A stretch of DNA of 64,000 nt from the NCBI GenBank assembly GCA_000004985.1, contig GG738877.1; one strand, written 5' to 3'. The notes beneath the pieces were generated by a model. That model did not search any database. It was not told the DNA's origin and saw only the letters and a list, made by a program, of their open reading frames with translations. The position numbers and the translations under genes are program-made. The stretch is from Naegleria gruberi. Its lineage: Eukaryota. Positions 2,361-50,277 of this stretch are shown in pieces; the first letter of the stretch is position 1; every line of letters starts with the position of its first letter.

Positions 2361-3260
2361 ATGGCAGCACAACAACAATTTTCTTATGGAGTGTGGTCCC
2401 TGATATTTTCCATGTTGGAACCTTTTGATAAGAGATCTAATGAAGAGAATTTAATAATGGAAAATATTAAGAGTTGGACTTGTTGTAGGAGCCGATCAAG
2501 ATCAATTCATGATGGTTTGAAATATGGAATAACAAGATTGGATTTGTCGGGATGTGTTTCTTTGCCGAGGAAAAAGATGGTTGCTCGTGCAATTAATCAA
2601 ATTGTGAATGCTAATTCCGTTACTAGTAATGGAGTAATGATAAAGACTTATGAGAGATGCTCATGGAATGATGAAGCCTTGATCAATAGTAGTGATTTGC
2701 TTAGGATGGAATTAGAGAGACAGGACAAGATTTGTGAATTATTGGTAAAATATTTAATTGAAAACTTTGCTTGTTTGACAGAATTGAACTTGAATGGTTT
2801 GCATCGATTAAGACAAGATCAATTGGAGAGTATTAGTTTTAATGAACTAAAAAGTCTATCAATTAGCCATTGTAGAAATGTGAAACAATTAAATCTAGAC
2901 AAATTTGGAAAATTGGAAAGGATTTCAATTCATGTATCACAAATTGAGTTGAGAATTAACTTGTTGGAGCAGATTGCAAACAAAGAGAATGAAAACTCTG
3001 AGAGAATTCCAGAGCTTGTTGTTGATGATGAAGGAGGATATGAGGTGATTATTAGAAATTGGTTGAGTCAAGCAACAATTCCCATCCATATATATATTGA
3101 TTATTCTTACAGGACAATTGATTTGGAACGAGTGTGCGAACGTTCAAGGGATGTTAGTATGATTAAACTTATATTCGCAGGAAAGGCATTGGAAAACGAA
3201 AGGTACTTGGTGGATTACAGCATTACCAAGGGCACAACCTTGCATTATGTTAAACCTTGA
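2361..3260 (+). CDS. F-box-like / LRR protein with a C-terminal ubiquitin-like half-domain
   Basis: The start is ATG at 2361. The N-terminus is F-box-like (WSLIFSMLEP...IKSWTCC). The middle has LRR-like units (LDLSGC, LTELNLNGL, LKSLSISHCRNV). The last ~30 aa, KLIFAGKALENERYLVDYSITKGTTLHYV, match the C-terminal half of ubiquitin ([28 protein letters not shown]). Confidence 0.6.
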   Translation: MAAQQQFSYGVWSLIFSMLEPFDKRSNEENLIMENIKSWTCCRSRSRSIHDGLKYGITRLDLSGCVSLPRKKMVARAINQIVNANSVTSNGVMIKTYERCSWNDEALINSSDLLRMELERQDKICELLVKYLIENFACLTELNLNGLHRLRQDQLESISFNELKSLSISHCRNVKQLNLDKFGKLERISIHVSQIELRINLLEQIANKENENSERIPELVVDDEGGYEVIIRNWLSQATIPIHIYIDYSYRTIDLERVCERSRDVSMIKLIFAGKALENERYLVDYSITKGTTLHYVKP

Positions 3261-3456
3261 ATACTTTAAATATCTTTAAAAGAATTCCAAATTAAATTTG
3301 AAATATTAAAATTATTATTAAATTCATCAAATAAAGATTTCCAAATTGAACCTTCCACACTTGATTTTATCATGACTTTTCACAGATAATATTATTAGTA
3401 TTACTAATTATAATTTAATATCATTTCTTCATTGTTATTTAATTGATTCATTCATT

Positions 3457-3672
3457 CTAATTTTCATTTGAATCTTCTACTTCTTCAGCACCTTCGGAAT
3501 TATCATCATCAAATTCCTCTTCAGAATCATCATATTCCGAAGTTAAATATTTTTCTTCCCACTTTTTGAAAAGTTCTTGATTGGTGGCTAGCAATTCCAA
3601 CATTTCTTCAATAGAGAGTGCTGGTTGGCTCATCACATATTCCTCCGTGAGTGGTTGTTTGGAATTTTGCAT
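3457..3672 (-). CDS. Small acidic protein (71 aa), function unknown
   Basis: The ORF starts at ATG 3672 with an A-rich leader and has an ordinary N-terminus followed by a D/E-rich tail. I recognise no domain. Confidence 0.4.
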   Translation of the reverse strand: MQNSKQPLTEEYVMSQPALSIEEMLELLATNQELFKKWEEKYLTSEYDDSEEEFDDDNSEGAEEVEDSNEN

Positions 3673-3888
3673 TTTTTTTTGAATTTTAAAGTTTCAATTA
3701 ATTGTTGAAGAATTTCTAATGCGGAATCTCAATAAGAAAGTTCTTCTTTAGAAACTATTTATTGTATTAATGTGTCATCATGAGTAAGATTTCGATAACT
3801 TAACATTGTAACAGTGAACTTTCTAAAAATAAAGGTCAAAAAAAATACTCAACTTAATTGTATTTGCAGAGATTGAACAGTTTACAAA

Positions 3889-4350
3889 ATGATGCAAATT
3901 TTTATTAAAACTCTCACAGGCAAGACAATTACTTTGCAAGTAGAGTCAATCAACCAAACAATAGAAAATATCAAATCCAAAGTTCAAGACAAGGAAGGAA
4001 TTTTAACAGATTACAAACTCTTCTTTGCAGGTCAACCAGTACATGATGGAATGCTAACAGATTACAATATTCAGAATGATTCAACTCTGCATTTAGTGTC
4101 AGGATTGAGAGGTGGTGTTCAAATACTTGTCAAGACATTGACTGGTAAAATTCTCACTTTGGAGGTTGAATCGAATGACACTATTGGAAATGTTAAATTA
4201 AAGATTCAAGATAAGGAAAATATTCCACCAGATCAACAACGAATTATATTTGCTGGTAAGGAATTGCAGGATGGAATCACCTTGTTGGATTCTAATGTTA
4301 TTCAAAAAGATTCCAATCTTCATTTGATTGTTAAGGCTAAAGGTGGCTAA
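3889..4350 (+). CDS. Di-ubiquitin-like protein: two divergent ubiquitin folds, each ending in Gly-Gly
   Basis: The start is ATG at 3889. Domain 1 is [19 protein letters not shown]...[35 protein letters not shown]. Domain 2 is [19 protein letters not shown]...[36 protein letters not shown] followed directly by the stop. Both are clearly ubiquitin-like (the MQIFVKTLTGK and [11 protein letters not shown] motifs) but diverged. Confidence 0.8.
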
Positions 4351-4465
4351 CAGTGTTCTAATTAAATTAATCATTGAATGAAAATGCAATTTATATCCAT
4401 GTTGCTGAAACTGGCTTTTTTTCGGTATAGTTTTTATTTAAATATCAGAAATTAAGGATTTCAAC

Positions 4466-4583
4466 GGCTACGGCCATATCACGATGAATGCACCTCATCC
4501 CGTCCGATTTGAGAAGTTAAGCATCGTAGAGCCACATCAGTACTGAGGTTGGAGACAACTTGGGAACCTGTGGTGCTGTAGTC
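4466..4583 (+). rRNA. 5S: 5S ribosomal RNA, copy 1
   Basis: GGCTACGGCCATATCACGATGAATGCACCTCATCCCGTCCGATTTGAGAAGTTAAGCATCGTAGAGCCACATCAGTACTGAGGTTGGAGACAACTTGGGAACCTGTGGTGCTGTAGTC, followed by a TTTT pol III terminator. It has the canonical 5S boxes (GGCCATA, CCCGTCCGAT, AGTTAAGC, GGTGCTGTA). Confidence 0.92.
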
Positions 4584-4699
4584 TTTTATTTCTTTTTATA
4601 TTTTTGCAGATTTTACACTTGTTTGATATCAACAATATTGGAAGCTTGTTTTTATTGGTTTTTCAATATTGATTCATTAAGTACTGCCATTTTACAAAA

Positions 4700-5232
4700 T
4701 TAGAAAGCATTAATCAACTTTTTAGCTTCAGAATCAGCAGATGGACTTTGTCTTTCATTAGCAACCTTCATAATAAGAGTCAAATTGCAATCCAAAGTGA
4801 CAACCAAATCAGTACCATTAACCTTGTAAGAATATCCAAGGAAACCAGAAGATTCCTTACTATCAGCATTGTGGACAACTCTGAAAATCAATTTTTCCAA
4901 TCCCATGAAAGCGTCCTTACAATCAGGATCCTTGATGAAAACCTTGGCAATTTCACTCATCTCAATCTTGGACTTTCAGTTAAGAATTTGATGCAATTAT
5001 TCAACAAGGTATCTTCAGCAAATCTATCACCATACTTGTATTTGGTTTCAGTTGGCAATGCAGCAAGAGAAGCCCAATCCAACAAGATGATCATCTTTGA
5101 ATTGACTTGTTGAAGATTCTTAGTAGCAGGAACAATACGATTGTTGAATAATTCACGAACCACCTTCTTGAATGCCAAACCACTTCCACACATGTTTTCA
5201 TTGAATAATTCTTCGTGAGTTTGTTGAGTCAT
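4700..5232 (-). CDS. Hypothetical ~175-aa protein encoded as two ORFs (5232..4957 and 4960..4700) in different frames; interrupted gene or pseudogene
   Basis: The upstream ORF starts at ATG 5232 (MTQQTHEELFNEN...). Its TGA stop overlaps the ATG of the downstream ORF (MSEIAKVFIKDPD...) in AGATGAGTG. Both halves have normal codon usage, so they probably form one gene. A possible 80-nt GTATGG...GAG intron would join them but the acceptor is weak. I recognise no family. Confidence 0.4.
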
Positions 5233-6695
5233 TTTGATATAAAGCTTGTTGAGGAGTTTTCAGATACAATTCAATATTGAATATTGTTTTTTTGTTTTGT
5301 CTTTATCATAAAGAATGGTCAATTTGAATTTATAGTAATTTTTACTGAGTAAGATTACAATATTTACAATGGAGTTTAATAGAGTTCAATGGTTTTCTGA
5401 GAATTGAATTGGTTTAACATTTGTGGAACAACCTTATTGAGAAGTCAGTAAGAGGAATGGTAACACCTCAGTATCATCTAACTATCGAATAGAACTCAAC
5501 AACAACAATTGGATATGGAAAAGGGAGGATATTAGTTTCCAATGTTCTCATTTAACCCTCTTGATCGTGTTGCTTAAAATAATTAGTTGGAAACTCATTG
5601 TAACTTTTGGAACTACAAAAACGAAAAAAACAACATGGACATGTTAACATGCTTTCATGCAACATGCAAGAATGCAAGTTGTGCTATCAAAGCTAATAGG
5701 AACCCAAAATATTCATTTCAAATAGGATTTTATTTCATTATAGAACAAATTACAACTATTGCTTATATGAGGATGAACAACTTGCACATTATTACAAAAC
5801 CTGAATACAGTGTTACGGAGGAATGTTATCGAAAGGGAACGATTCTGTTGAATATGACAATTTATTTGATTCGGAGGTATTCCATTAGATCAACAGAATT
5901 AAATATATTTACAGTGAATGTCTAGGTTGTACAAAATTTGGAGTTGATTGATTTATCTAAAAGATTACCATTATTTGATATTGATACATCTAATATTATA
6001 AATGGAACTAGACATTGATTATCATCTTGCAAATTTAAATGGTAAAGAAATTTCAGTGAAAAGATCTTCGAAAAATTCAATTGAAAAGAGCTAAACAACA
6101 ATCAGCCACCACTAAGAAGATTACCAAATCGAAAAAGATGTAAATTAACTTGTAACTAATTACGTAGTAAATTGTAAATGTTTTGAAATAGATGAAGTTT
6201 CAATTTAGAATTGATCAGAATATGAGAAACCAAAATTTGCATCAAACAATTCAACATGGCAAAAGTTCAATAAATACTAGGTTGATCAACCATATCTATT
6301 TCTTCAAACAAAACCTGAACCAACAAGATTCTGTCTTCGTTGCCTTCACTGTTCATACAGTCAAAGACTGTAGCGGGACAGTCGCCATATTCCTGGCAGG
6401 CTTCCTGTCGTATCTAATTAATTGAATTTCTATTGACATTGCTTCCAAGTAGCGATCTAGTAGAATTCGACTCTACATTACACAACTTAAAGGCAGTTAT
6501 AAATATGGTTACTAAAGTTCAAAGTGTTAGATCATTAAGTAATCATCTTGGATGGTTGGAAATAATGCCCCAAGTGTTAAAGTTATTGATAACAATAAGG
6601 ATGAACAAAATGGTTCTTTCATCCACCCTCGCTTCTATGTTCGAGAAAGCTCACTCATCTTAATAGATTAAATATCGTAAATTAAGGTGATGAAT

Positions 6696-6813
6696 GGCTA
6701 CGGCCATATCACGATGAATGCACCTCATCCCGTCCGATTTGAGAAGTTAAGCATCGTCGAGCCACATCAGTACTGAGGTTGGAGACAACTTGGGAACCTG
6801 TGGTGCTGTAGTC
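6696..6813 (+). rRNA. 5S: 5S ribosomal RNA, copy 2
   Basis: It is nearly identical to copy 1, with one difference (CATCGTCGAGCC versus CATCGTAGAGCC). It is followed by a TTTTT terminator. Confidence 0.92.
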
Positions 6814-6965
6814 TTTTTATTTAGCTTTTTATAAGGATAATTCATTTGCTACCTGTTCAATTTTTGATCTTTTCAAACTTTTATTCAAGTACCACAACAC
6901 CATGCATCCAAGGTAATACAGAATCGCTCCACATATACAACCTCTTATCCAATTCTCTCGAAAAC

Positions 6966-7160
6966 ATCTTTCTCGGCCAATTGGCTTTGATCGAGTGTAG
7001 TATCTGTTCTTTTCAGTTTAATAGCTGAAAGCAGCCCACGGGTTGCAATTACTATTAACTCAATTTTTTGTAGGGTCCAGAGTTGTGCTTGATTGCACAC
7101 TTTGGTTGGTTTCAATCAGACATTGCACTGTCCGTCAGAATTGGAGCTATCCCACTCTAT
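6966..7160 (+). ncRNA. U2: U2 spliceosomal snRNA
   Basis: ATCTTTCTCGGCCAATTGGCTTTGATCGAGTGTAGTATCTGTTCTTTTCAGTTTAATAGCTGAAAG aligns to the universally conserved U2 5' region (ATCGCTTCTCGGCCTTTTGGCTAAGATCAAGTGTAGTATCTGTTCTTATCAGTTTAATATCTGATA), including the branch-point-interaction sequence GTGTAGTA. An Sm site AATTTTTTG lies at about 7062, followed by a 3' stem-loop (GTTGTGCTTGATTGCACAC). The 3' end is approximate. Confidence 0.78.
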
Positions 7161-7862
7161 TGAAAAGTGAAAAATTACAAGAGTATTTATTGACTTTACA
7201 TAGTAAGACGACCATTAGTTTAATTGGACGAAAACCGTTGTCTTGTTGGAAATATTGATGAGAGCAAAGACATGTTTTTTCTCTTCCAGGAGAGAGAAAA
7301 TATATAGAATTGATATCTGGTCAAGCCAGCAATTACTTTCTTTCCGTTGTTTGTTTCGAGTAAAAGGTTGAGATACAGTAGTACTTGTTGTTGTAAGAGC
7401 ACCTTGTTGTTGATGAGATGATAGGAATAATGAAACAGAAATGAACAAAGGTTGGAACCAAAGCCTTCCTAGGAAGGTATCGATAGCGTTGCCATTTTTT
7501 ATTAAATTTAAATTAAATTAAAAACCATTTTAAATATCTAACGGTTTGCTTCTTCCCTTCATCACAATAAGAAAATGACTTGAACACAAATGTTATATTA
7601 TTCACTTTTAATACCACTGTATAGTGATACCAAACACAATAGTCTTAACGGAGAGATGACATCAACACCTCGCTGCTGAATTTTTCGATCCACTCTTGAA
7701 AATTTCCTCTTATCCGTGGAAAATCCTCTTCCATCTTTCTCTGGAAACAACAACCTATCATCAATACTATTAAACTATTATTACGTTTGACAATTAACTA
7801 AAAAACAACACATCATAATAACATATAATTATTATTATTTTACATCTAAATCTAGGAACATT

Positions 7863-37421: not shown

Positions 37422-38120
37422 TTAGTAAGTACGACATTGACTTTCTGGAGGACAACTATCTGGAATTGTGAAAAGTTTTGGATCTAATTGATAACTTGCT
37501 CCAGAAAATTGTACATTCTTTGAGAAACTTCCCTCAGGTTGAGTAATTGCTTGAACATAACTTGCAAAAACGCAACTTTGTTGATCAATAGGAAGTGTCC
37601 AATAATATTCGGTGCTGATATATCTATCGACTCCTCTTTGCATAATTGTCTCAGTTCCATATTTTTGTGCCTTATTAAAGCCAATATTTGATTCTTCCAA
37701 TAGTTTTCCAATAGTACAATAGTTATTGGACCAATTGTTCTGAGCAGTTTTCACACAGAAACATGTTTGTCCCCAAATAATAGTATAGGAATAAGTAAGT
37801 TGGCCATTTCTGTATGAAATTATAGTAGTATTTGGTGCAATATTGCTATTGGTCACATCTGTTCTTGCCTTTCCATTATCTAAATCATCATTGATGGTCC
37901 ATGTAGCAAAGTATGTGTTGGTTTCATTACCAGCAAAGCCTACTTGCATTGTACTTCCCTTCAAGGAGATTTTTCTTGGTAAACAGCAAGAAGTTGGGTA
38001 ATCCTTTTGGTTGACCATTGCTGGCAGTATAGAACGAGGATGTATGGCAGTAGAATAATTGACAATCAACAAGATTGCAAATAAACAAGCAGTGATGATC
38101 AATGCGTTGTGATGAGACAT
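37422..38120 (-). CDS. Ependymin-related secreted protein (EPDR family)
   Basis: The start is ATG at 38120. There is a signal peptide (ALIITACLFAILLIVNYSTA). The N-terminal motif is C-x-P within PTSCCLPRKISLKG. The C-terminal motif KLFTIPDSCPPESQC matches EPDR1 SVFTPPSTC. The conserved Trp and Cys spacing fits the ependymin fold. Confidence 0.6.
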   Translation of the reverse strand: MSHHNALIITACLFAILLIVNYSTAIHPRSILPAMVNQKDYPTSCCLPRKISLKGSTMQVGFAGNETNTYFATWTINDDLDNGKARTDVTNSNIAPNTTIISYRNGQLTYSYTIIWGQTCFCVKTAQNNWSNNYCTIGKLLEESNIGFNKAQKYGTETIMQRGVDRYISTEYYWTLPIDQQSCVFASYVQAITQPEGSFSKNVQFSGASYQLDPKLFTIPDSCPPESQCRTY

Positions 38121-38416
38121 TTTTTTGTTGGGATTTTGATTTGATATTTAAATGTGGCGTAACTTTCTAGTATGATTCCAAGAACATGTTCTTCTCATCC
38201 ATTTCGAGTCTAATAACGGAACAATTTGTGAAATTTACAACTACTCGGAGTTGACTACAATCTTAAATTCAATGTTCAGCAGATGATCTTTATTTTCTTT
38301 TTTCATTCACTTCTTACAGGGTTAATGGTGTTGATTCTGAAGCTAAAAAGTTGATTAATGATTTCAAATTTTTTGTAATTTAAACAAGCGTCCACCTCAA
38401 AAGCAATATTATAAAA

Positions 38417-38533
38417 GACTACAGCACCACAGGTTCCCAAGTTGTCTCCAACCTCAGTACTGATGTGGCTCGACGATGCTTAACTTCTCAAATCGGACGG
38501 GATGGGTTCATTCATCGTGATATGGCCGTAGCC
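38417..38533 (-). rRNA. 5S: 5S ribosomal RNA, copy 3 (a 2-nt-shorter sequence variant)
   Basis: It is the reverse complement of the 5S consensus, but it reads GGGATGGGTTCATTCATCG where the other copies read GGGATGAGGTGCATTCATCG. A T-run terminator follows on the gene strand. It may be a pseudogene. Confidence 0.8.
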
Positions 38534-38598
38534 ATTGATATCCTTAATTTACGATATTTAATCTATTAAGATGAGCTTTCTCGAACATAGAACGAACT

Positions 38599-39126
38599 AT
38601 GAACCAAGAAACGTTCATCACAAAATCAAAAAAAATGGGTCAAAAGCAAAGTATCTCTAAATGGACGATTGATGAACATACTTTGAGCATTGATGATGTT
38701 TGCAAAAAGTTCGATACTCAATTTAATAACTATAATCCGGATGAATCATTAGGCTTGAAGAGTCAAGTGGTTAATAAACGATCGGCACAGTTAAGTAGAA
38801 AGAGGAGAACAGTCATTGTATTTAGGGATGGTATTAAGAAAAATATTGATAGTGAAGAGTTGGTGGTGGGTGATATTGTGATGGTCAATAGTGGAGATAT
38901 TGTTCCAGCAGATTTGAGAATTTTGAGTATTAATGGTTTGAAGGTGGATAATTGCATAATAAGCGGAGAGAAGACGATATTGAATTGTACTGTTGATAAG
39001 ACACACGAAAATCCTTTCGAGACGTCCAATATTCTTTTCAAGGAGACAACCATTGTAGCTGGAAGTGGGTATGCAGTGGTCATTAAAATTGGTAGTGATA
39101 CATTAATTGAATCTTTGGCTCCATAA
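38599..39126 (+). pseudogene. Na+/K+-ATPase alpha-subunit-like (P-type IIC) gene relic: N-terminal fragment with an internal deletion and premature stop
   Basis: HTLSIDDVCKKFDTQ ... GLKSQVVNKRSAQ aligns with the Na,K-ATPase N-terminus (HKLSLDELHRKYGTD...GLT.ARAAE). RTVIVFRDGIKKNIDSEELVVGDIVMVNSGDIVPADLRILS...LKVDNCIISGEKT...NPFETSNILFKETTIVAGSGYAVVIKIGSDT aligns with the actuator domain ([36 protein letters not shown]...CKVDNSSLTGESEP...NPLETRNIAFFST). The transmembrane M1-M2 segment between them is missing. The ORF stops after 175 aa, and no phosphorylation or ATP-binding domains follow in any frame. Confidence 0.6.
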
Positions 39127-39613
39127 CAGAATGCTATTGAAATCATACACAAAAAACTGTTCTGATGCAAGGAATAGATAGGTTATTGAATTATTAATAT
39201 CATATGTTGGGGAGGTATTGTTTGGTGCTGGTTGACTAGAATTTAAAAACATTCCAATAATATTTTAGTGGGTTTACATTCTCTTACATCTAACCTAAGA
39301 TCATAGTATCCGCCTTAAGGCACTCCTTTCAGGGACAAAGCTTTGAAGAACTACAGTTTGAAGGATGATTAAGGGATGATTAAGCATAGTGTAAATCACA
39401 ATTAAAAGCTGGAGTATCAGATTTAATTTCCTTTTCAATCAACTTGAACCTTTTTCTTCACCTCTTTGATGTTTTCCACCACCTTCATGATGGAACAATT
39501 CAAACGTTTTTCCTTGCTTATCAATGATAAATTGGCGCCACTTTCCAAAGCCTTAAATTTTTAAAATTTTAAAAAAAACTCTCAAATTGAAACTCTAACT
39601 TTCTTCTTCAGTA

Positions 39614-40999
39614 ATGAACGCAAACCATTTCAATAGCCTTTTGAATAAGGTCGCAGAAGGGCATTTCAACAGAAAGATCACAGAATCAAAGGTTTTGAAA
39701 ACCTTTCTCTCTGTGATTAGAATGAAGATTAAGAATAATTTTGATTCACTTATCGGAAAGGAAGAGGAAAACGAAGAGATGGAAAGAATACTTCATTCCT
39801 TTTTAATTGATGAAATTGGTGATGTAAATAATATAATTTATACCCACTCGTTAATTATTAGATCAAAACATTCCATCACAAACGTTGAAGATTTCTTTAA
39901 ATTTCTAACAACAATTGGAAACAAGTACAACCTGTTGGAGTTATTGTTTTTAGATGATCTAGAGCATCAATGGGCTGAATACGATATGATTGTAAGCGAT
40001 TATGAAGAATCGATGAAAGCTTTTGTTAAAAGAAATTTGCCTTTCAATCCTTCATCAATAGAAACCGTTGTAAGGGATAACGAACAGTTTGATGTTTTCG
40101 AACAACTTGTTAATAGGTGGTTCCCAAATGCATCAAACAAGCTTTTGATTGATGGGTTGATTTATTCAATGATGTTTTACTTTAGTATTACCCCTTCCAG
40201 AAAAGATTTAGTTTTGCAAGTTGGAATTCTTCCTCAATTACCAAGTTTCTTTGACAAGTTTTTATTGCTAATGTGTTATTGCAAAAACTTTGAGATGATT
40301 CCATCTGAAAAGTTTAAATTTATCTTGAAGTTTATTATTGATAATAATCCATTCAACAATTTTTCTGACTTGATGAATAGCACCGATACAGTCATTCTGA
40401 CCAAGCTTTTTATTAAGCTAGGGATTGCTTTACATGAAAAAATGGACCAAACAAAACTAGAGGAATTAACTATGCAAATATCTACACTTTCCGAAAACCT
40501 AGAGAAAGAGTCAAGAAAGAATTTGATAACAAGAGAAGAGGTTCAATTAATTAGTATAAAATTGGCAGGGACTGAGGAAGAGTTAAGACTTACCAGAGAG
40601 AAGTTAGAAGAAGAATTACGACTTACCAAAGAGAAGTTACAATCACAAGAAGAAGAGTTAAGAGTTGCAAGAGAGAAATTATTTGAAGTAGAAACTGAAT
40701 TAGCATTGATGAATAATATTATGATTAACCCCAAAAATAGAGAACTGCAAAAGTTAGCCTCACAAATTGAAGCACTCACTCAAACAATATTCTCTCTTCT
40801 TTCACAACAAGACAGTTCACAAAAGGAATGTGCAAGAAAAAGTAAACAAATCGAAGAATTGGAAGGGTTCATCGTTGAAATTCAAGAGAAATATCATTTG
40901 GAAATGAAACAAAGAGCAGAGCAACCTGTTTGTGAATGCAGTTGCACATCCTGTGTTTCTTGTGTTCATAAGAGTAATACGAATATTTCAAACAATTAA
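39614..40999 (+). CDS. Hypothetical protein with a C-terminal coiled coil and Cys-rich tail
   Basis: The start is ATG at 39614. The N-terminal 280 aa are globular and unassigned. Repeats EEELRLTREKLEEELRLTKEKLQSQEEELRVAREKL follow, and the tail is CECSCTSCVSCVHK. Confidence 0.5.
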   Translation: MNANHFNSLLNKVAEGHFNRKITESKVLKTFLSVIRMKIKNNFDSLIGKEEENEEMERILHSFLIDEIGDVNNIIYTHSLIIRSKHSITNVEDFFKFLTTIGNKYNLLELLFLDDLEHQWAEYDMIVSDYEESMKAFVKRNLPFNPSSIETVVRDNEQFDVFEQLVNRWFPNASNKLLIDGLIYSMMFYFSITPSRKDLVLQVGILPQLPSFFDKFLLLMCYCKNFEMIPSEKFKFILKFIIDNNPFNNFSDLMNSTDTVILTKLFIKLGIALHEKMDQTKLEELTMQISTLSENLEKESRKNLITREEVQLISIKLAGTEEELRLTREKLEEELRLTKEKLQSQEEELRVAREKLFEVETELALMNNIMINPKNRELQKLASQIEALTQTIFSLLSQQDSSQKECARKSKQIEELEGFIVEIQEKYHLEMKQRAEQPVCECSCTSCVSCVHKSNTNISNN

Positions 41000-50239: not shown

Positions 50240-50277
50240 CACGAGCCATCAGCCAAAATTGTTTAATAAATTAAAAA

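Follow-up and report, generated by a model that had tools for sequence, protein, structure and literature searches.

The actuator (A) domain of P-type ATPases is built from two sequence pieces that flank a membrane hairpin, namely an N-terminal segment and the loop between the second and third transmembrane helices (the M2–M3 loop). Dispersed 5S rRNA genes are known to carry flanking DNA with them by recombination, through unequal crossing-over or through extrachromosomal circles formed from tandem repeats. Both systems meet in a 64-kb stretch of Naegleria gruberi nuclear DNA (contig GG738877.1, 33.7% G+C; hereafter the window), in which a 175-codon open reading frame (ORF; 38599–39126, plus strand) derived from a Na/K-ATPase-type pump lies beside the third of four 5S rRNA genes (copy 3; 38416–38533, minus strand).

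Compared with the pumps of this type (P2C), the ORF retains the A-domain features, that is, the DEHxLS...GL segment and the xRDGxxxxIxxxxLVxGD...PAD...KVDN...NP.E core; unlike them it is free-standing, without M1–M10, the DKTGT phosphorylation site or a nucleotide-binding domain, and the SSL...EPQ residues around the TGES motif are replaced, as is TGES itself. As in dispersed 5S genes, a unit of ~330 nt (with promoter and downstream flanks) is found again, inverted, at a distance of 32 kb, and the flank combination of copy 3 is that expected from two direct 5S repeats; unlike in that model, no circle or donor is seen in the window, and the copy 3 sites nearest the gene are a mosaic. Here, we describe the anatomy, homologies, selection signal and predicted fold of the ORF, which we read, with moderate confidence, as a lineage-restricted, selectively maintained stand-alone actuator-domain protein. 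From these data we infer that its product is expressed and acts by binding.

A pump A domain without its membrane hairpin

The translated ORF shows 100% identity to EFC42763 / XP_002675507 (NAEGRDRAFT_69190), a protein predicted for N. gruberi whose annotated coding sequence begins at Met13 (38635, MGQKQS...), giving a product of 163–175 residues depending on the start codon. Residues 69–173 match the Pfam family E1-E2_ATPase (PF00122, 7e-20), and the best matches in the Protein Data Bank (PDB) are Na/K-ATPase alpha subunits (4e-23), well ahead of H/K-, Ca- and Mg-ATPases. Residues 71–172 align to residues 158–259 of the alpha3 subunit and residues 23–41 to its residues 30–48, so that ~80 residues, corresponding to the M1–M2 hairpin, are missing inside a continuous reading frame. 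The N-terminal half of the A domain (WTIDEHTLSIDDVCKKFDTQFNNYNPDESLGLKSQVVNKRSAQL; 38662–38790, plus strand), homologous to the pump segment before M1, was recovered by tblastn of the whole window with three pumps (P0004, P0163 and P0167; E 1e-7 to 1e-6), and the first 300 residues of the N. gruberi pump P0163 searched against the 901-nt locus alone gave E 1e-9. It is followed by a basic junction, SRKRRT (38791–38808, plus strand), in place of the ~80–95 hairpin residues of pumps, and then by the A-domain core equivalent to the M2–M3 loop (38809–39123, plus strand), which is 44–48% identical to Naegleria and Willaertia pumps and carries SGEK where they carry TGES. The ORF ends ...GSDTLIESLAP, where pumps go on into M3, and contains no membrane segment (maximum 19-residue Kyte–Doolittle average 1.36).

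No other credible ATPase piece was found on either strand of the 64 kb by tblastn with nine full-length pumps, neither M3–M10 nor a phosphorylation (P) or nucleotide-binding (N) domain, and the ORF is therefore not part of an intact pump. These searches bear out a first-pass annotation of the sequence, which had described a Na/K-ATPase N-terminus and A domain with M1–M2 deleted and nothing after it, and they answer the check it proposed, as no pump exons to which the ORF could be spliced lie downstream in the window. A pump relic behind the stop codon was also considered and rejected: the post-stop peptide QNAIEIIHKKLF does not align with the pre-M3 segment of pumps (TPLRREIDSFV). An antisense ORF of 135 codons (38763–39170, minus strand) overlaps the A-domain ORF; its resemblance to pump residues ~600–725 (E 0.004–0.009, 20–26% identity, two of nine queries) was judged to be chance. 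Predicted tryptic peptides of the A-domain ORF product include TVIVFR, NIDSEELVVGDIVMVNSGDIVPADLR and THENPFETSNILFK.

Conservation in a second Naegleria lineage

A second Naegleria lineage is represented by an 838-nt metagenome contig from an independent assembly (L001; ENA ERZ929261, run ERR1078381), which covers 38511–39279. As the contig begins inside 5S copy 3, the arrangement of 5S gene and ORF is common to both lineages. It encodes the same protein (P0156, 177 residues) with the same stop codon. Ten substitutions separate the two ORFs, seven synonymous and three non-synonymous, which corresponds to dS 0.069, dN 0.0072 and dN/dS 0.10 by the Nei–Gojobori method; from these two alleles and ten substitutions, the 7:3 division has a binomial P of 0.0009, and P stays ≤0.010 for kappa up to 8.

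The non-coding 3′ flank (39127–39279) provides an internal reference, with 8 substitutions and 4 indels between the lineages. Non-synonymous divergence in the ORF is lower than divergence in this flank (P 0.0017), and synonymous divergence equals it (P 0.79). Over the 492 nt between Met13 and the stop, the lineages differ by no indel, compared with four in the 153-nt flank (9, 2, 1 and 1 nt; P 0.003), and the sole indel of the ORF, of 6 nt, is in frame and lies before Met13. The 9-nt indel, together with two replacements, distinguishes the lineages in the region of the post-stop peptide. Neither lineage has a disabling stop or frameshift, the ten substitutions do not follow a neutral pattern, and a run of 175 open codons has a chance probability of 1.2e-6 at this base composition. 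The first-pass annotation had called the ORF a decayed pseudogene; the dN/dS of 0.10, the common stop, the lack of indels after Met13 and the complete predicted fold described below speak against that call.

Beyond 39279, the second-lineage contig (its positions 789–838) continues as the reverse complement of ~39515–39492, an inversion or rearrangement polymorphism behind the ORF. This difference between the lineages marks the neighbourhood as structurally unstable. A minus-strand peptide in the same region (39280–39560), GKWRQFIIDKQGKTFELF, is partly kept in the second lineage (EGKTFELF) on the other strand, and has no Pfam or PDB match.

Predicted fold and altered catalytic loop

An AlphaFold2 model of the ORF product reaches a mean predicted local distance difference test (pLDDT) score of 89.2 and a predicted template-modelling (pTM) score of 0.86, with a dip to ~71 at the junction; its input alignment consists of full-length pumps, which biases it to the pump A-domain fold. 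Its superposition on Na/K- and H/K-ATPases covers both A-domain halves (query TM-score 0.79–0.85, root-mean-square deviation 2.5–6.8 Å). In the model, exactly the membrane parts are gone after the two losses, and the discontinuous A domain is complete.

Among 40 positions conserved in at least 90% of 35 pumps, the ORF keeps 29, and six of the 11 losses fall in or next to the TGES loop, where SSLTGESEPQ of pumps reads CIISGEKTIL, with only G and E kept. Constraint seems to act on the fold and not on the catalytic loop, a combination that suggests a binding role rather than a catalytic one. As judged from its sequence, the product cannot pump, because it has no phosphorylation, nucleotide-binding or membrane domain, and it probably cannot catalyse dephosphorylation. 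Where pumps have the hairpin, the ORF product has a strongly basic junction (KRSAQLSRKRR). The ATG of Met13 lies in an A-rich context, as do the starts of other genes in the window, and MGQKQS fits the N-myristoylation consensus G-x-x-x-S/T; that a product started at Met13 might be N-terminally myristoylated is speculation.

Descent from heterolobosean pumps

Intact heterolobosean pumps for comparison come from N. gruberi (P0163), N. fowleri (FDP41_003312), N. lovaniensis (C9374_014047 and C9374_012266) and Willaertia (ABK040_005067). The ORF has in common with them a short Lys-rich N-terminus, FI[KT]KSKK (MNQET-FITKSKK in the ORF, MKQKSAKEVKFIKKSKK in P0163), a 7-residue insert, FNxxxPExS (FNNYNPDES and FNQDKPEKS, respectively), and a GSGY motif; between the N-terminus and the insert, DEHTLSIDDVC of the ORF corresponds to SEHELSVERVC of P0163. 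Given the shared N-terminus, insert and GSGY motif, the ORF descends from a Naegleria-type pump gene including its start region. On this sequence evidence, a full pump gene must have been shortened by deletion and truncation to give the ORF, and the heterolobosean Na/K-ATPase-type pumps are the likely parent lineage. It differs from these pumps in its divergence, with ~41% identity over 154 aligned positions as against 61–68% among the pumps themselves.

In a neighbour-joining tree, the ORF forms a long, unresolved branch, placed with 50% support beside a divergent environmental pump (L006). This very divergent Na/K-type pump, split by introns, occupies 2363–7447 of a eukaryotic metagenome contig; assignment of that contig to Naegleria was rejected on account of its 47% G+C content and its introns. 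The L006 pump and the ORF share the motifs NILFK, YA[LV]VI and DTLI, and their affinity in the tree may reflect long-branch attraction.

In N. fowleri, N. lovaniensis and Willaertia, no annotated orthologue of the ORF was found, which suggests that the gene is young or restricted to its lineage. A word-index search for further alleles or orthologues returned only the ORF's own cluster, and a metagenome scan gave only ATPases of 32% identity on long metagenome contigs.

Hairpin-less A-domain proteins in marine protists

An exhaustive HMMER search of 1.84 billion representative proteins returned pumps along with short proteins that lack M1–M2 and are colinear with the ORF; a subsequent profile search added two more (P0276 and P0277). 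These marine proteins stem from short metagenome and metatranscriptome contigs (JGI, Logan and a Tara-derived catalogue). P0091 has 165 residues and a single module, and P0003, P0007 and P0130 have 370–388 residues and two tandem modules. In one marine metatranscriptome contig, that of P0276, the reading frame closes with a TGA stop after ...GLATTLEF and is followed by 150 nt of 3′ untranslated region (UTR).

Like the ORF, the marine proteins consist of an N-terminal segment, a short linker in place of M1–M2 and the A-domain core, and end before M3; the junctions agree with that of the ORF to within a few residues (one HMMER alignment pairs 9–174 with 203–368, and the others are similar). Unlike the ORF, they do not have the 7-residue insert, are mostly tandem two-module proteins and are 24–36% identical to it. 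A clade joining them with the ORF receives 29% bootstrap, which does not indicate common descent. In view of the missing insert and the weak clade support, the hairpin-less architecture would have arisen more than once, and the marine and Naegleria proteins are probably of independent origin. In the two-module proteins (P0003, P0007, P0130 and P0276; L002 1–1090), the first module is without TGES and the second often keeps it. In the searchable literature, we found no description of natural stand-alone A domains.

A hybrid 5S rRNA gene next to the ORF

Rfam identifies four 5S rRNA genes, one U2 snRNA (6964–7154) and three tRNAs in the window. 5S copies 1 (4466–4584) and 2 (6696–6814) lie on the plus strand and copies 3 and 4 (50277–50395) on the minus strand; copy 1 serves as the reference for the downstream flank type, and copy 2 with its flank (6633–6814) as the reference for the upstream flank of copy 3. 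Copy 3 has the lowest RF00001 score of the four (90.7 bits, compared with 103–106 for the others; gathering score 38). It had been described as 2 nt shorter than the other copies; an alignment of the four corrects this to a single nucleotide (118 nt against 119), one base being deleted, with one additional C-to-A substitution (GCACCTC to GAACC-C). Unlike in copies 1 and 2, two helix III pairs are broken (four positions non-canonical), and this disruption accounts for the ~15-bit lower score. The upstream element and the TTTT terminator run are present at copy 3.

The upstream side of copy 3 is of the copy 2 type, as the first-pass annotation had proposed. In a self-comparison of 38100–39300, positions 38413–38592 match 6817–6633 at 95% over 185 nt, which comprises the 5S gene and ~60 nt of copy 2 upstream flank. 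The flank by itself is 89% identical to that of copy 2 (6633–6695) from −1 to −63 (E 7.5e-19), and of the sites at which copies 1 and 2 differ, the 12 between −41 and −17 are all copy-2-like in copy 3. This flank (38534–38598, minus strand) is at the same time the divergent 5′ region of the A-domain ORF.

All four 5S genes, and no other place in the 64 kb (0 expected by chance), have a 20-nt element, TTAAATATCNNANATTAAGG, at −28 to −9 (4438–4457, 6668–6687, 38542–38561 and 50404–50423); the copy 3 version, TTAAATATCGTAAATTAAGG at 38542–38561, is likewise specific to 5S genes. It is probably an upstream promoter element of Naegleria 5S genes. Beyond the element, the flanks fall into two classes, copies 2 and 3 (−1 to −63) versus copies 1 and 4. 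The flank type of copies 1 and 4 (4380–4465 and 50396–50480) reads AAACTGGCTT..TTTCGGTATAG, with a ~32-nt insertion in copy 4. The similarity between the flanks of copies 2 and 3 perhaps continues weakly (6605–6632 against 38593–38620; ATGAACCAAGAAACGTTCATC and ATGAAAGAACCATTTTGTTCATC), into the first ATG and about seven codons of the ORF; if this very short match is real, the copy 2 flank may derive from locus 3, not the reverse. A literature search found nothing on the organisation of Naegleria 5S genes.

On its other side, copy 3 adjoins a non-coding relic of the 3′ end (SYKVNG...DSEAKKLINAF and stop) of a minus-strand gene at 4700–5232; the relic lies at 38311–38380 on the plus strand. By blastn within the window, 38329–38372 matches 4739–4696 in inverted orientation (41/44, E 9e-13), a stretch that comprises the final 12 codons of that gene and the beginning of its 3′ flank. 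A second piece, 38311–38336 against 4832–4807 (23/26), extends the relic to ~70 nt and reveals that 69 nt have been deleted in frame from its interior, between two CTGATT microhomologies. The stop codon of the relic is lost (TAA to AAA), and two Ala codons are changed. Relic and copy 3 stand tail-to-tail, exactly as do the gene at 4700–5232 and copy 1. The gene-tail relic (last 12 codons and 3′ UTR) and the inverted copying of a tail-to-tail arrangement, both noted in the first-pass annotation, are therefore found as described, the relic being longer.

Between the relic and the 3′ end of copy 3 is a spacer (38381–38415, minus strand) that includes the TTTT terminator run and may be a shortened form of the 115-nt spacer at locus 1 (TGGACGCTTGT and TGGAAGCTTGT, respectively; weak homology in a global alignment). 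The distal downstream flank of copy 3 is copy-1-like, and at −7 to −1 and immediately 3′ of the gene, sites of the copy 1 and copy 2 types are intermingled.

Judged by these flanks, copy 3 would be a recombinant of the copy 1 and copy 2 unit types, because its flank combination matches the expected hybrid. Copies 1 and 2, direct repeats 2.23 kb apart, would have recombined into an excised circle or an unequal-crossover hybrid, with a copy-2-type promoter flank and a copy-1-type downstream flank that includes a piece of the neighbouring gene. This hybrid unit would then have come to sit 32 kb away, with the 5′ end of the ORF adjoining copy 3. Possibly, copy 3 is instead a plain copy of a donor elsewhere in the genome with the same flanks, the search having covered the 64-kb window.

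Genes around the 5S loci

The gene at 4700–5232 (minus strand), of the type that gave rise to the relic, probably contains one short intron and has no Pfam or PDB match. Its two ORFs lie in different frames, adjoin at ATGA (4957–4960; region 4940–5040, minus strand) and could be joined by an intron of 50 nt (GTTGAA...AG) or 80 nt (GTATGG...AG). A two-domain ubiquitin-like gene (3889–4350) ends 115 nt upstream of 5S copy 1, and the U2 snRNA gene sits 150 nt downstream of copy 2; small-RNA genes are clustered in the part of the contig around copies 1 and 2. The gene following the A-domain ORF (39614–40999) is an unrelated coiled-coil ORF.

Maintained protein or remnant

We consider it reasonably probable that the ORF is a maintained protein gene. 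A paralogue of a Na/K-ATPase-type (P2C) pump would have lost the M1–M2 hairpin by an in-frame deletion and also everything from M3 on, leaving the two A-domain pieces, and purifying selection would have kept the small soluble protein that remained. Its product would most likely bind proteins with its conserved A-domain surface, docking for instance onto the cytoplasmic domains of an intact pump or onto the pump's partners, and an N-terminal myristate and the basic junction KRSAQLSRKRR may hold it at membranes.

Several observations weigh against this reading. The selection test draws on two alleles and ten substitutions only, and the AlphaFold2 model is biased to the pump A-domain fold by its input. 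The loss of the TGES loop and of several pump-invariant residues would also fit relaxed constraint. The neighbourhood is prone to rearrangement, as the relic, the hybrid 5S gene and the downstream inversion attest, and copy 3 itself carries two helix-breaking changes. The mosaic of sites at −7 to −1 and immediately 3′ of the gene does not bear out a single clean crossover in copy 3. Finally, the other sequenced heterolobosean species listed above yielded no annotated orthologue.

The rival that survives best, although we think it unlikely, is a young unitary pseudogene fragment, in which the rearrangements that introduced the 5S block also cut short a divergent paralogue, whose frame has not yet decayed. 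The patchwork of gene-tail relic, hybrid 5S gene and inversion between lineages just downstream is what such a history would leave behind, the ORF has lost its TGES loop along with 11 of 40 pump-invariant positions, no orthologue is seen in other sequenced Naegleria species, and the divergence from pumps could date from a full-length working stage. The lineage comparison goes the other way, with a dN/dS of 0.10 (P 0.001–0.01), non-synonymous divergence below and synonymous divergence level with the flank, a stop position common to both lineages, and indels confined to the sequence outside Met13-to-stop. This history would, moreover, require two separate deletions that happened to spare exactly one complete discontinuous domain and left nothing hydrophobic behind, and the same architecture is expressed in unrelated marine protists. 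The first-pass annotation had summarised the locus as a rearrangement scar that decayed an ATPase gene; the chimeric 5S gene, the relic and the truncated ORF stand, and the selection signal speaks against the decay.

We give little credence to conservation of the sequence for a non-protein role (as a promoter, enhancer or antisense transcript for the 5S gene or a neighbour) with an incidental open frame. The 88 nt upstream of the ORF show no differences between the lineages, and the 135-codon antisense ORF would offer a candidate transcript; read in the sense frame, however, changes in the ORF cluster at third codon positions. No frame other than that of the ORF is free of stops in both lineages, and the antisense ORF has stops or non-synonymous changes in the second. 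Counted by frame, the substitutions divide 7:3 (synonymous to non-synonymous) in the sense frame and 6:4 in one frame that carries stops, and the four others have 0–2 synonymous changes. Codon usage, too, is gene-like in the sense frame only, with a score per codon of 0.255 (0.34 ± 0.08 for long genes of the window) against ≤0.08 in the other five frames.

The least probable reading of all makes the ORF the opening coding exon of a larger pump gene, whose remainder would be spliced on or have been lost by mis-assembly: Naegleria genes can have introns and the ORF ends where M3 would start, but splicing to downstream exons was rejected for want of any further ATPase similarity on either strand, the M1–M2 gap lies inside a continuous frame and not at an exon edge, the independent assembly of the other lineage has the same stop followed by indel-rich sequence, and the next gene encodes the coiled-coil protein.

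Discussion

The 5S part of the locus is ordinary genome turnover, a recombinant, slightly damaged copy that carries a piece of a neighbouring gene. It provides a clear example of dispersed 5S genes taking pieces of their neighbours along, and comparison of the four copies suggests that Naegleria 5S genes have a conserved upstream element at −28 to −9.

For the ORF, the maintained stand-alone A-domain protein that we favour has wider implications. The hairpin has been cleanly excised and the remaining domain carries a signature of selection; if this reading is true, the A domain has a life outside the pump, and the ORF product would be a ready-made soluble probe or regulator for pump biology. 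The independent occurrence of the same architecture in marine protists suggests that it is no one-off accident. Much more tentatively, and as a proposal that we ourselves hold to be doubtful, soluble free-standing A domains may form a recurrent, convergent class derived from Na/K-ATPase-type pumps in Naegleria and marine protists, which would act in trans on pumps or their partners as decoys or as regulators of the E1/E2 cycle.

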